From a bacterium (GTDB taxonomy: Bacteria; Zhuqueibacterota; Zhuqueibacteria; Oceanimicrobiales; Oceanimicrobiaceae): DNA of 14,841 bases. Under the pieces are notes generated by a model. That model did no database searches. It was not told the DNA's origin and saw nothing but the letters and a program-made list of their open reading frames with translations. Location of the stretch: assembly GCA_046757025.1 (NCBI GenBank), contig JBHHXN010000130.1, positions 1 to 14,841 on the forward strand, in the 5' to 3' direction. A program made the translations under genes and the position numbers. Of the stretch, positions 1,536-7,187 are shown piece after piece; positions within the stretch are counted from its first letter, which is position 1, and each line of letters begins with the position of its first letter.

Positions 1536-1699
1536 TATAGTTATGGAAATTGATTCCAAAAAAAGTCTCTAAAATTTCAGCAATTATGATAGTCTTAAAA
1601 TATTTTTTTTACAATTTACAGTAGCTGTTGATGATCAGTGCTCCCATGTATGAAAAGAGTCTCTCTCTGTAATCACAGTTTAACATCCTTCTTACCTAA

Positions 1700-1879
1700 C
1701 CCGGACAAGCCGGAACCAAAAAAAATATTTAATAGCGCACGCAAAGTCGCCGAGACGCAAAGAATACGCAAAGGTTTTCTTTGCAATCCCTTTCGCCTTA
1801 GCGTGAAATCTTTGTTTTTTGGGATTTGAATTTTCATTTCTTGCCAAAAAAGGACAGAATTTGACTTCTCAAATATTAA
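1700..1879. mobile_element. 180-bp non-coding hairpin element flanked by TAA direct repeats (copy 1)
   Basis: TAA at 1697-1699 (within CCTAA) and at 1877-1879. Left motif AAGCCGGAACCAAAA and right motif TTCTTGCCAAAAAA. Three internal ACGCAAAG units (1739, 1755, 1766) with complementary CTTTGC and CTTAGCGTG downstream. Boundaries inferred by comparison with the copy at 6262-6421. Confidence 0.65.
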
Positions 1880-2218
1880 GTTATCACGACTGTTGTAGGA
1901 GTGTATGATTTATCTTCACTAAGAATGAATGAAAAAAAAGAGGTTATGTGATTAGGATAATTTCAATTCTAATCAGGATTGTATTAGATAATGCGCAACT
2001 TGACCGAGCAGTGCACAAATTTTTCAGTTTTGAGAGATTTTGAAATTTAATTGTATCTACTATATTAAGGCCAGTTTCAGGCCGTGGCGGGTGAGTTGAG
2101 AATATTATATTATTACACAGATACTCGCCTGGTCACAAAGTAGTTCAAGTTTACTTCAAAGCAAGGGGTAAAATGATTTTACCCTCCCCAAATACTTTCA
2201 ATGATTGGAGGTACCGTT

Positions 2219-2965
2219 ATGACTCTATTCATATCCATTGCTATCGCCATCGGGGGCACTGTGATAGTCGGAATCGCCTTGCGCGAAATCTTCCGTAGTC
2301 TTAATCCAGCATTATTATCTGGATATCGTCCCTGCAAGGGCGGCTGGTGGGAAGCTGAGCTCAACAATTGCAGTCTCGGTTTGAAAAAGCTTCCTCAGCA
2401 GCCGGTCAATACCTACACCAACGTCGCGTATGTTACCGGCGGTTTGTTCCTCATGTTCACGCTGAATACGCTGCCAACCTACGTCCTTTCCTTAACCTTA
2501 CTCTATCTTTGCGCCGGTTCTGCGTTGTATCACGCAACTTCTACGCGCTGGGCTGGCAGTCTCGACGCCAGCGCCATGTATGCGCTGTTTTCTGCACTGA
2601 CCGCGTACGCTGCTTTCCGTTTTTTGGGTCTGACCGATGCGTTGGCGGCTTTTCTGATGATTTTGGTGGCCACTTTAGCGGGTTATTTTTTGCGCTACAA
2701 ATATCGCGGCAACATGTCGCTCAAGATCGGTGTGTTTTTGGTGCTCACTTATGCTTTCCTGATCTGGAATATGCTGAGAAGCCAGCAGTCGCTTTTGAAC
2801 GCCTATTTGATCGGTTCGTTTGCGCTGTTTGCTGTGGCCTATTTGATCTGGAATCTCGATAAAGCGCGGAGTTTCCCGCTTAGACGCTGGGGGCATGGGC
2901 TTTGGCATGTGCTGACGGCGGCGGCCATCGCCATGCTGTATTACGTGACGCATCAGACGCTTTGA
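2219..2965 (+). CDS. CREST-superfamily (ceramidase-like) multi-pass membrane hydrolase
   Basis: About 7-8 hydrophobic segments with QPVNTYTN, GSALYHA (SxxxH-type), LD and HGLWH (HxxxH) motifs. GGAGG at 2207-2211 favours ATG 2219 over ATG 2201. Confidence 0.8.
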   Translation: MTLFISIAIAIGGTVIVGIALREIFRSLNPALLSGYRPCKGGWWEAELNNCSLGLKKLPQQPVNTYTNVAYVTGGLFLMFTLNTLPTYVLSLTLLYLCAGSALYHATSTRWAGSLDASAMYALFSALTAYAAFRFLGLTDALAAFLMILVATLAGYFLRYKYRGNMSLKIGVFLVLTYAFLIWNMLRSQQSLLNAYLIGSFALFAVAYLIWNLDKARSFPLRRWGHGLWHVLTAAAIAMLYYVTHQTL

Positions 2966-3308
2966 GAGAATCTTCGAGCGGTAAAATCATCATCCACAGT
3001 CGTCCATTTATGCAATCCTGCTTGGCAAACCACCGATTGATTCGACATCCTGCTCTCCATCGTAACTATTCAGGGATTTTCAACGCGGTCGTACTGTAAA
3101 TTGATTTTTCATGTTTATTAACTGGCTGGAATGGCGGTTATCCTGTTTGCTTGGCACTGTTCCAGGATAGTCATACTGAGCAAATTGGATGACCGTAGAA
3201 AGGCATGCATAACCAGTCGTGACTTCTCATTTTAACTATCATGATGAAACGGGACGCCGGCAAAATGACTAATTGGCGATTCCGTGAGACATCATGAAAG
3301 GAGGTAAC

Positions 3309-4427
3309 ATGGTTCCTAAATATAAAGACAATCAACACAAAATTCTGGAGGCGCCGATGACCAACGAGGATCTGGTGCAACTGGACAACAAGTTAGATCA
3401 GGCAGATTCGCCGGAGCTTTTAGAGCTGCGCCGCAATGCCGCGCTTTACATCACGGCTTTGAGCGACGAATTGGATGCGGACGATTTTAAGATGACAAAA
3501 ATCGGTAAAAAAGGCATGTGGTCGTTTCAGCTCGGCAGCAATTTTACGGTAGGTCAACTGGGGGATGAGATCGAGGAGCTGCCGCGTTCCGATGACCTCG
3601 TTTTTGAAGCTGAAAATCTCGATCCGCATATTCCGAGTTGGAGTGGGATTGCCTATCATCCCAAAATAAGCGGGCCACGCGAAGTGCGCTCCATGCGACG
3701 AGTTCGAGGCAGCCGGGTAACGCCGCACTACATCTTTGGTCCGGATGACCGGCAAGTGTACTACCCCAGCGCCTATCCCTGGCGTTGTGTGGGTCGAGTT
3801 TTCGCATGGACCGATCCCAGCAGCCCGGGCCCTTCCTGGTCGGGTGCCGGCGCCCTGGTGGGCAGAAATGTAGTGGTCACAGCCAGTCACGTGGTCCCCT
3901 GGGGTAGCAGCCCCTGGATGATGCAGTTCATCCCGGCTTATTACGATGGCGCCTCTTTGCTGGGCAGCGGGGTTTACTCTTATGTACAATCCGTGCGCGG
4001 GTACAAGAATCACGGCCAGGGTGACGATATGGCGGTGCTTAAATTGTACACGCCGCTGGGAAATACCCTGGGCTGGTTCGGTACCAAAACTTATCACGAC
4101 AGCTGGGAAGACGGCAACTACTGGACGAAATGTGGGTATCCGGGCGCGGTGGCGTTTGGGCAACGTCCCAGCCGCATAACTTGGTTTCCCATCATCGATG
4201 ACGACAACGATGGCGCCGGCGTGGAGCTGGAGTATCGCGCCGATTCCAGCGGCGGCGATTCTGGCGGTCCGGTATTCGGCTGGTGGAGTGGTTTACCTTA
4301 TATAATTGGCGCGCACTCCGGCGGCGAGCAAGAGTACCACTTCCCATTCAGCATCGTCAAAAACAACGTGGCAGCGGGCGGAAGCGCTTTGCCGAATCTG
4401 GTTATCTGGGCGCACAACAACTGGTAA
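3309..4427 (+). CDS. Trypsin-like serine protease (V8/glutamyl endopeptidase-like) with acidic N-terminal extension
   Basis: Catalytic triad motifs TASHV, DMAVLKL and GDSGGP, plus YPWRCVG and GAHSGG. AGGAGG at 3299-3304 favours ATG 3309. Confidence 0.88.
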   Translation: MVPKYKDNQHKILEAPMTNEDLVQLDNKLDQADSPELLELRRNAALYITALSDELDADDFKMTKIGKKGMWSFQLGSNFTVGQLGDEIEELPRSDDLVFEAENLDPHIPSWSGIAYHPKISGPREVRSMRRVRGSRVTPHYIFGPDDRQVYYPSAYPWRCVGRVFAWTDPSSPGPSWSGAGALVGRNVVVTASHVVPWGSSPWMMQFIPAYYDGASLLGSGVYSYVQSVRGYKNHGQGDDMAVLKLYTPLGNTLGWFGTKTYHDSWEDGNYWTKCGYPGAVAFGQRPSRITWFPIIDDDNDGAGVELEYRADSSGGDSGGPVFGWWSGLPYIIGAHSGGEQEYHFPFSIVKNNVAAGGSALPNLVIWAHNNW

Positions 4428-4824: not shown

Positions 4825-6003
4825 ATGAAAAACAAAATCAGTTCTAAACTCATTTTAGCTGTTGGAAGTGTCGCCATCTTCATCATCTCGATATTTTCCT
4901 ACTTCATCGTCAATTCACAGCGCCAGGCCCTCATTTCACAAATCGAACACAATGCCAATCAATTGAGCGAAACCATCAAAAGCAGCACGAAATACGATAT
5001 GCTGCTCAACCAGCGCCAGCGTGTACATCGCATCATCGACACCATCGGCCAGCAGGAGGGTATCGAAAAAATCCGCATTTTTAACAAAGAAGGGGAGATC
5101 TTCTATTCATCGGATAAAACCGAAATTGGACAGTTGGTGGATAAACAAGCCGAGTCCTGCTACGCCTGCCATCTCGCGGATCAGGCGCTGGAGCGGTTGA
5201 CGATCCCCGAATGTACGCGCACTTTCAACGCAAAAGAAAATGAAAAGAATCTCGGCATCATCAACCCCATATACAACGAGCCCGGTTGCTGGCAGGCATC
5301 CTGTCATGCCCACCAGGTGCAGCAAAAAGTGCTGGGTGTTTTGGACGTCACCATGTCGCTGTGGAAAGTGGAGGAGCAAATCAATGCCGAACAGGCTAAA
5401 TTGGCTTTGTTTGCTTTGAGCGCCATCGTCGCCATCAGCGTTATGCTCTGGTTTCTGGTCCAAAAATTCGTCGGCAAACCGGTTAGCCAATTGGTGGAGG
5501 CTACCGGCAAAGCGGCTGCAGGCCATCTCAATTACAGGATCAAAGTCGTCACCAATGATGAGATGGGACATCTCAGTGATTCTTTCAATGAAATGACCCA
5601 AAAGCTGGCGGAAGCGCAAAGACAACTGGTGCAATCGGACAAGCTGGCTTTACTGGGCCGATTCGCCGCAGGAGTGGCGCATGAAATTAACAACCCGCTG
5701 ACCGGTGTGTTAACCTACAGCAGTTACCTGTTGAAGCGGGTCGATTTTGACGGTGAAAAGAAAAAAGCCCAGGAAGTCATCGTGCGGGAAACCAAGCGCT
5801 GCCGCGAAATCGTGAAAGATTTGCTGGACTTTGCTCGCCAGAATCCATCAAAAAAGATCGATTGTAACGTCATACAGATTATTTTGATGATTTCTGGATC
5901 GACTGTAAAATTTGTCATCATGAAAAAAAAACACCGGTTTTGGCCCAGACGTGTTCCAATTGTCATCACACCTCGCCAGCAAATATTGCGGATGAAACTT
6001 TGA
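4825..6003 (+). pseudogene. Membrane sensor histidine kinase with c-type heme motifs, lacking the ATPase domain
   Basis: TM, then an extracytoplasmic domain with CYACH (5158-5172) and CWQASCH (5287-5307), then TM, HAMP (DEMGHLSDSFNEM) and H-box (AHEINNPL). Kinase-like sequence stops near 5867; no N/G1/F/G2 boxes follow. Confidence 0.85.
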
Positions 6004-6116
6004 GATCCAAGGTGGTTATCCACAAGAATTGCTGGCAATGTCATGAAATTGGCCAGGGCGCGGAAGCCAGCGCCAATTGTGGTTTTTGCCATTCGGGCAA
6101 GAAAAGCCGGTTTTGA
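5868..6116 (+). pseudogene. Tetraheme cytochrome c3-like C-terminal fragment (82 codons, 5' end lost); not in the ORF track
   Basis: Hand translation: RHTDYFDDFWIDCKICHHEKKTPVLAQTCSNCHHTSPANIADETLRSKVVIHKNCWQCHEIGQGAEASANCGFCHSGKKSRF*. It contains four CxxCH motifs and is preceded in frame by TAA 5865-5867. Confidence 0.88.
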
Positions 6117-6169
6117 AATGAACAGGCAGGTTGCACCACTTAACACTCCTGCCTGAAAGGAGGCTGCAA

Positions 6170-7187
6170 TTGGATAGACGAAATTTTTTAAAATTAGCCG
6201 GCGCGGCTGGCACCGCTCTGGCTAGCCAGAAACTCAACGCAGAAGAGGCAGTAAAGCCTAATGCAGCGAAAAGCCGCAAACCGAAAAGCGAAATTCGCAA
6301 AAAGGAATTCCAGAGTTGGCTTGTCTATTTCAAAATCTATAGACGACGAATTTCGGTTTCCGGTTTTCGATTTTTATTTTTCTTGGCAAAAAAATGCAAA
6401 AGTTCAGAAGTAATACTATAAAGAATTTGTGGGTGTGCTGGTGGATACGACCCGCTGTATCGGCTGCCGTTCCTGCGAGAGAGCCTGCTCGGAAGCTCAC
6501 GATCTCTTCGTGCCGGATATCGAAAACGATTTGGCCCTGGAAAATGAGCGGCAGACCAGCGAAAAACAATGGACCGTAGTCAATCGTTATGAAACAGAAA
6601 AAGGGCAAGTGTTTGTCAAAAGACAATGCTTGCACTGCTGGCAGCCGGCCTGCGCCGCGGCTTGTTTGACCAATGCCATGTACAAAACCAAAGACGGGCC
6701 GGTTATCTGGAGATCCGACAAGTGCATGGGTTGTCGATTTTGCATGGTTTCCTGCCCTTTTAACATTCCAAAATTTGAGTACCATGAATGGAATCCTAAA
6801 ATCCAGAAGTGCAATATGTGCTGGGAACGGCTGCAGCAGGGCAAAAAGCCGGCTTGTATCGCAGCCTGCCCCACCGATGCGTTGATGTTCGGTATGAAGC
6901 GAGACTTGATGGAAGTCGCCCGCGTGCGGGTTTACCACCATCCCACAAAATATGTACACCAAATTTACGGAGAACACGAAGTTGGCGGCACCGGCTGGCT
7001 GTATCTGTCGGCGGTTCCGTTTGAGCAGTTGGGATTCCGCACCGATTTGGGAACCACGCCGTACCCAGAATATACCAGAGATTTTTTGTATGCGGTACCC
7101 GTCATTCTGTTTGGATTCCCAGCTTTGCTGCGGGGGCTGAGCTTTTTAACCGACAACAAAGAAGAGGAAGCTGATCAGGAAGGGTAA
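6170..7187 (+). pseudogene. HybA/HmcB-like 4x[4Fe-4S] protein with Tat signal, interrupted by a 160-bp insertion
   Basis: AGGAGG 6158-6163 and TTG 6170 give MDRRNFLKLAGAAGTALA (twin-arginine). The body (6423-7187, different frame) has CIGCRSCERAC, CLHCWQPACAAAC, CMGCRFCMVSC, CNMC...CIAAC, YGEHEVGGTGWLYLS and a C-terminal TM. Removing 6262-6421 gives a 285-aa ORF. Confidence 0.88.
6262..6421. mobile_element. 160-bp non-coding hairpin element flanked by TAA direct repeats (copy 2)
   Basis: TAA at 6259-6261 (within CCTAA) and at 6419-6421. Internal 18/20 inverted repeat at 6278-6297 and 6347-6366. End motifs AAGCCGCAAACCGAAAA and TTCTTGGCAAAAAAA. Removal restores the host reading frame. Confidence 0.85.

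Follow-up and report, generated by a model that had tools for sequence, protein, structure and literature searches.

The locus examined here raises the question of why the Tat leader and the iron-sulfur body of one predicted redox protein lie in two reading frames on either side of a 160-bp stretch of DNA. The initial annotation allowed two answers, an inactivating insertion of a non-autonomous element, or an excisable or spliced switch controlling export of the protein. We analyzed the whole 14,841-nt stretch (contig JBHHXN010000130.1 of assembly GCA_046757025.1; hereafter the window), together with its host genome (G000) and related genomes. All coordinates without a contig name refer to the window; the genes at 4825-7187 and the two gene-less elements lie on its forward strand.

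An hmcB/hybA-like gene interrupted by a 160-bp insert

The 5′ piece of the split gene (6170..6257) opens at a TTG start and encodes a Tat signal, identified by PF10518, TIGR01409 and the leaders of homologues; the 4Fe-4S body begins at 6423, within the 3′ piece (6418..7187), and is in a different frame, as had been claimed at the outset. The best NCBIfam matches of the 3′ piece are HmcB (323 bits, cut-off 420) and HybA (200 bits, cut-off 263), both below their cut-offs, and it is 81-85% identical to its best intact homologues. Removal of 160 bp from the split gene gives an open reading frame of 285 codons with a spacing of 40 between the RR motif and the first cysteine. Homologues have this spacing most often: of 120 listed, 110 have an RR motif that can be read, and 65 of these show the modal value of 40, within a range of 38-47. 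Alignment with intact homologues, which had been proposed as a check, supports an insertion: the orthologues in four related genomes (G014, G012, G005 and G025) have no long linker. Since the two frames differ, removal of 160 bp restores an open reading frame of normal spacing, and the orthologues of relatives are intact, the hmcB/hybA-like gene is interrupted by an insertion. No other close copy of the Fe-S gene is present in the host genome, where the best match reaches 28%. The next gene in the 3′ direction is HmcC/HybB-like, under the NCBIfam cut-offs, and is followed by hyp genes. A further hydrogenase locus is present on contig C158 of the host genome, where positions 2191-3624 encode the large subunit of a hydrogenase and include a single in-frame TGA that may be a selenocysteine codon.

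The leader frame stays open across the entire insert until a TAA at 6419-6421, one base ahead of the frame of the body. This arrangement could in principle allow expression of the split gene, either by a +1 frameshift at the leader stop or by a restart at GTG 6429; we consider this extremely improbable. The frameshift product would carry 53 extra residues, whereas 47 is the widest spacing among the homologues counted, and a restart product would be devoid of the Tat signal. Presumably, the CTA codon that precedes the stop would also allow only poor +1 re-pairing of the kind seen at a prfB-type site, which counts against the frameshift.

The genes upstream of the insert are also damaged. A sensor kinase gene (4825..5870) contains HAMP and HisKA domains and ends before the ATPase domain, with no HATPase; at about 5870 an out-of-frame fusion joins it to the 3′ part of a five-heme cytochrome c gene, whose last 81 codons survive as a headless remnant (5871..6116) with four CxxCH motifs. 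In relatives the five-heme cytochrome gene precedes hmcB, and it is whole in G014, G012 and G005. On this comparison, a deletion just upstream of the split gene has destroyed both the kinase and the cytochrome genes, independently of the insert. Contigs from four DNA runs match the window from 5800-5824 to 6286 with no differences. Elsewhere in the window, at 420-1409, there is an IS701/IS4-like DDE transposase gene that scores below every NCBIfam cut-off.

Boundaries, target and copies of the element

The boundaries of the element can be read from a second repeat of the host genome that occurs in filled and empty forms. A filled copy on C241 matches the empty ones on C188, C266 and C288 for 16 bases on the left and about 50 bases on the right of ATTC^ATAG, where the caret marks the cut; at the opposite end of the repeat, the right side shows the same geometry in the comparison of C288, C266 and C109 with C1, C95 and C178. 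The 12 filled ends of this repeat run on with CTA in 11 cases and with TTA in one, and no unfilled copy with a matching repeat body has such a continuation. The empty sites are paralogous copies of the host repeat, not real pre-insertion alleles, and their comparison with filled copies fixes the cut, and with it a precise insertion, at C^ATA(A/G). With the cut at C^ATA, the element comprises positions 6258..6417, starts with CTA and ends with TAATACT, and the ATA(A/G) on its right is target. The length of 160 bp and the frame given initially are thus unchanged, and the bounds, first placed at 6262-6421, are corrected. The same holds for the claim that exact removal restores the gene: the 285-aa reading frame is recovered as described, with the joined codons CAT-AAA (His-Lys) and not CCT-AAA (Pro-Lys), since a cut at C^ATA would make the empty codon His. 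The host repeat, which is found on the contigs named above and on others, is short, with terminal inverted repeats from ACCTG and several middles, and is a preferred target of the CTA…TAATACT-type elements.

The window copy belongs to the family that we call family 1 (CTAATG…TAATACT). Its left end (6258..6279) consists of CTA, two bases, a GC hairpin (GCAGC-GAAAA-GCCGC) and AA; this build recurs in other element families and ahead of transposase genes, and a swap of G-C to A-T in the hairpin occurs in 5 of 39 left ends, a covariation that was counted with a constrained pattern and is descriptive only. The right end, designated type A (6380..6417; 78 matrix hits in the host genome), is made up of a short inverted repeat and A-rich spacer, GTT, six variable bases and TAATACT. 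The six bases (6405-6410) vary between copies that are otherwise near-identical, reading CAGAAG, CAGTGT, CTGAAG or CAGATG. The middle (6269..6375) is an imperfect long hairpin with arms at 6269-6297 and 6347-6375, and is exchangeable, other families having unrelated middles. Within these 29-nt arms lies the inverted repeat of 18 in 20 positions described initially (6278-6297 and 6347-6366; DNA fold z -2.75). The earlier statement that the insert has no terminal inverted repeats and no transposase also holds: there is no open reading frame of note, the hairpins are subterminal, and the two ends differ. A promoter scan of the element found no site, and the right end is promoter-like by eye only.

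Full copies number 13 in the host genome; they are 153-160 bp long and share 153-160 identities with the window copy. There are 12 further matches to the left end only and 11 to the right end only, nearly all at contig ends; among the 11, one is another family and one is a truncated copy in mid-contig. In the contigs of four hydrothermal-vent DNA runs from one study, the depth of the core is 145-276, against 5-15 for the flanks. About 30 additional elements in the host genome combine the same two ends with unrelated middles, and a second type of right end occurs 22 times. The paired elements number 42: 13 of family 1, 20 of a 233-234-bp family, and nine others. When one mismatch is allowed, the type-A right-end pattern is present in 16 of 125 genomes of the class, and the reversed control gave two hits in all; the named contigs with this end include candidate division KSB1 and Neomarinimicrobiota.

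Many of the middles are 7-8-base periodic repeats, like the flanks of GxxExxY and four-helix-bundle genes. Some elements are stacked, in tandem or head to head, so that a right end directly adjoins the left end of its neighbor; such stacks are seen on C324, C47 and C60 of the host genome and at loci L228 and L060. Very short palindromic forms with right-end sequence only occur at L129 (G098:C131) and L016 (G007:C18) and on host contigs C150 and C256. At L054 (G014:C120), the remnant just before the right end is what we take to be a GxxExxY gene. Our comparison suggests that the middles may derive from captured GxxExxY or four-helix-bundle cassettes.

Counts over the junctions give a consensus for the target. 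The base before the left end is C in 59 of 61 cases, with A at -4 in 50 of 61; at 57 right ends the bases that follow are A (56), T (56), A (57) and A or G (56). In the window, the left half of the target (6252..6257) is AT-rich with C as its final base, and the right half (6418..6421) is ATAA, whose TAA ends the leader frame after 83 codons. The insert had been described as flanked by TAA, and we can rule out TAA as a target duplication: TAA is present at both junctions in just 14 of the 42 paired elements, the 234-bp family having CTAG on its left, and there is no duplication at all in 39 of the 42 or in the filled and empty pair. The other three paired elements have duplications of 2 bp in one case and 7 bp (ATAATTC) in two (C76 and C355). 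The 7-bp duplications would come about if the ends had been joined to two different ATA sites at a distance of seven bases, which would fit separate joining steps on one strand.

Genes are clearly split by three of the 42 paired elements, namely the window Fe-S gene, a 4Fe-4S protein gene on C178 (near its end) and a nucleotidyltransferase-like gene on C56; all three copies are in the sense orientation, a number too small to test. Export of the Fe-S subunit could in principle be controlled by a DNA switch, regulated and reversible, or by splicing of an RNA element, and this reading would be consistent with this orientation, with the normal spacing of the restored reading frame, and with a cut geometry that predicts precise excision. 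We nevertheless regard such a switch as very unlikely. Most copies are intergenic, relatives carry the plain gene, and the kinase and cytochrome genes upstream are destroyed by the deletion. The initial annotation had proposed a search for excised and circle junctions; the contigs of the four runs, which come from one study, have about 40-45x summed flank depth and tend to drop rare variants, contain neither the joined form nor a circle junction. The lack of a joined form in these contigs excludes a common excised allele and leaves room for a rare one; as precise excision is predicted to be mechanistically possible, rare reversion may occur. No Rfam family matches the element at or near the gathering level. 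A group I or group II intron or an IStron is likewise improbable, on the basis of the ribozyme families of Rfam, none of which comes near its gathering score, the length of 160 nt, and the exchangeable middles. The switch proposed as one of the two initial alternatives is therefore unsupported, and the other, inactivation by a non-autonomous element, is strengthened and extended by a multicopy, precisely inserted element for which an autonomous family has likely been found. The window copy has most likely knocked out its gene to neutral effect, in an operon that a deletion also breaks, and a knockout in a decaying operon is the simplest reading of the locus. We note that a split gene which becomes whole on exact removal of an insert can simply have been knocked out by a scarless element and need not be a switch.

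One-gene elements and a candidate mobilizing enzyme

Elements of about 1.7 kb in related genomes have ends similar to those of the window element and encode a single protein of 500-520 amino acids. In G052, a gene for a 502-aa member is preceded by the same left end as a second gene-less element of the window (1696..1877). This element is of the same superfamily and has the ends of another subfamily (CTAACCCGG…AAATATT), which are of the G052/G007 type; its left end is as in the transposase-bearing loci L150 and L154, and seven such left ends are present in the host genome. A left end of the same build stands ahead of the gene in G052, G007, G044, G008, two G124 copies and a Paraburkholderia plasmid, and two copies in G124 have GTAGCGCGGC-loop-GCCGCAACC before the transposase start (chance about 2e-7). 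No such left end was seen before the gene in G003, G071, G147, G115 and G124:C41, and two contigs were too short. Right ends that terminate in ACT follow the transposase stop in G082, G007, G003, G072, G062, G087 and G117. In G117, GTAATACT^ATA is found about 40 nt past the 3′ end of the transposase gene at two junctions (chance about 3e-5); it is the same as the right junction in the window, the shared identity being just the last 8 bases and the target. That family of genomes has many mini elements with the right end seen in G117 (12 of 19). A whole element is present on G007:C340, where the right end has the type-A inverted repeat but another last octamer, and no gene-bearing element with a full type-A right end was found among the genomes examined, all of them draft assemblies. 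The protein family comprises 1,951 long homologues among 4,662 candidates and is spread over 22 of 167 genomes of the phylum and 14 plasmid records. One plasmid copy (L182, NZ_CP014580.1) is annotated as an ArsR-family regulator, probably owing to its winged-helix tail.

An intact cognate transposase gene was not found in the host genome. Its sole member of the family (C46:14649-16242) is frameshifted and distant and has other ends, and the C-terminal half is 61% identical to an intact copy in G001. No match to the transposase alignment was obtained from seven further genomes that carry the right end (G098, G012, G096, G018, G086, G020 and G167); the genomes searched are drafts, and multicopy elements are frequently collapsed or missing in such assemblies. 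Scans for the exact right-end pattern in genome, metagenome and viral contigs returned 17, 23 and 2 loci, respectively, which are mini elements and chance promoter matches with no autonomous element among them, and the viral contigs held no relative of the L150 protein.

The lack of a cognate gene in the host and in the seven other genomes would be explained if the elements were moved by some other enzyme, be it a tyrosine recombinase, an IS110-type enzyme or an unknown one, with the ends shared with the unannotated family being convergent or borrowed; the host genome does have an IS110 gene and two integrase hits. We find this doubtful. The filled and empty comparison leaves no shared core, and thus no core dinucleotide at the cut as for IS110, and the IS110 contig (C372) is without these ends. 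The two ends are seen again flanking the unannotated gene in several genomes, and mini elements with the G117 right end occur in the same genomes as the gene. Candidate partners among the IS110, Y1/RAYT, TnpB, IS91 and integrase genes of the host were rejected, as none of those viewed carried the element ends (the C96 integrase and the C137 Y1 remnant were left out). The GxxExxY and four-helix-bundle genes were also rejected, with none of the 14 listed copies in the host genome flanked by element ends.

The protein encoded by the one-gene elements is not recognized by sequence models. Four members gave no meaningful Pfam hit, with no PF02486 up to E 1 and no PF04986; two members gave no NCBIfam hit, and the family profile has no sequence match in the PDB. 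Structural models of the protein are confident (pLDDT 90 and 94). In these models the C-terminus is a MarR-like winged helix (Z 9.6), and the top whole-domain matches of residues 1-384 are TBP-family structures (Z up to 8.4), RepDE (Z 7.4; 177 aligned, rmsd 4.5) and RepSTK1 (Z 6.6). These scores are middling: half-domain matches to phosphoglucomutase score similarly, and a Foldseek search of the PDB gave no hit that reached E 0.001. The conservation of residues carries more weight for a likeness to Rep_trans than do the fold scores. Among 85 sequences E243, K310, Y312, R320 and E322 are invariant and D20 is near-invariant, and all six are on strands in the model (pLDDT 94). The order K310-x-Y312…R320-x-E322 is paralleled by the Rep_trans motifs (PMC5714925); RepD uses R189, Y191, R212 and E214 (PMC4797284), and the archaeal Rep-Arvir has E25/D207/K281-x-Y283/E303 together with a MarR-like winged helix (PMC13107129). 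Two of the viral structure hits given for Rep-Arvir (PMC13107129) recur among the matches of our transposase model. We assign to the protein, with moderate confidence, a predicted TBP-like core that resembles the Rep_trans nickases of rolling-circle plasmids.

We propose that this enzyme would nick a single strand at three places, C^CTA at the left end, T^ATA at the right end and C^ATA in the target, with its tyrosine holding the base 3′ of each nick and the 5′ side bound. The element strand would be released as a single-stranded circle and joined into the target, and replication would fix the joined product. All three sites read ^(C/A)TA(A/G) on the plus strand, which fits one recognition rule, and if only the two ends matter, then middles could be swapped freely. 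Exact excision would restore the target, as is the case for IS608 (PMC10055086).

Taken together, the copy number, the boundaries, the target consensus, the lack of duplication and the ends common to one-gene elements describe a multicopy, gene-less element that inserts precisely at C^ATA without duplication and here breaks an hmcB/hybA-like gene; we think it probable that such elements are mobilized in trans by the ~510-residue protein, a predicted Rep_trans-like tyrosine nickase. On balance, we lean towards the broader reading of a new class of insertion sequences that would have these elements as their mini cargo and, as transposase, a tyrosine nickase of the Rep_trans/TBP fold, unrelated to the DDE, HUH, serine and DEDD enzymes. 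Such an enzyme would leave no scar when inserting at C^ATA(A/G) any DNA placed between a left end of ~22 nt and a right end of ~40 nt, and would be able to remove it exactly, which would make an insertion like the window copy reversible. If this is true, the HUH transposases are no longer the sole enzyme class for single-strand transposition that leaves no duplication, and this large protein family, so far unannotated, is one of transposases. For this system the window locus supplies the cut site, a target consensus from about 60 junctions and the minimal ends, and it proves that middles can be exchanged.

Comparison with known systems

Classical MITEs with a TA or TAA duplication are known from IS630 and from subgroups of IS5. 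The element is like them in being short, multicopy and gene-less, and unlike them in having neither terminal inverted repeats nor a fixed target duplication.

PATEs of the IS200/IS605 (IS608) type are, like the element, gene-less and free of terminal inverted repeats, with subterminal hairpins, no duplication, a scarless joint and mobilization in trans (PMC3119063, PMC10055086). The features that define a PATE (PMC3119063) would accommodate the insert as an IS200/IS605-family element on the minus strand, moved by a HUH Y1 transposase to follow the target YTAT; an intact-looking Y1 TnpA is present on C146 of the host genome, and YTAT on the minus strand fits the one-sided target of 4-5 nt expected of IS200/IS605, which a guide beside the hairpin reads, this guide rule having been judged by eye only. 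This assignment is unlikely. On the far side of the cut, too, the base is fixed (59 of 61), so that the target is conserved on both sides, and two copies have a 7-bp duplication. The C146 TnpA element has unrelated ends, and no TnpB was found in the host genome with a working control. The elements with these ends encode a non-HUH protein whose tyrosine is on a strand in the model. The element thus works like a PATE as described (PMC3119063) but fails on the enzyme, its ends being common to a non-HUH gene.

A search of the host genome for the IS91 Y2 transposase (PF04986) gave no match, although the control also matched nowhere. The IS91 target differs from C^ATA(A/G). IS91 and ISCR are like the system described here in their asymmetric ends, their lack of duplication, and a tyrosine nickase related to replication initiators (PMC5714925); IS91 uses a HUH Y2 enzyme (PMC5714925), whereas the partner protein of our elements has a predicted, unrelated TBP-like fold.

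We found no description of the element or of the transposase family in the literature, subscription journals and ISfinder being outside the scope of the search. The partner protein is unlike Rep_trans (PF02486) in having no Pfam or sequence match to it, and the available portions of two accounts of Rep_trans-type enzymes list them in plasmids, filamentous phages, conjugative elements and archaeal viruses, and not as transposases (PMC4797284, PMC13107129). In its modeled structure, the partner protein is like RepD, RepSTK1 and Rep-Arvir, with a putative TBP-like core, basic-x-Tyr and Arg-x-Glu motifs on strands, and acidic residues upstream (PMC4797284, PMC13107129). With Rep-Arvir the likeness of the model extends to what is predicted to be the same fold, the same order of residues and a C-terminal winged helix (PMC13107129).
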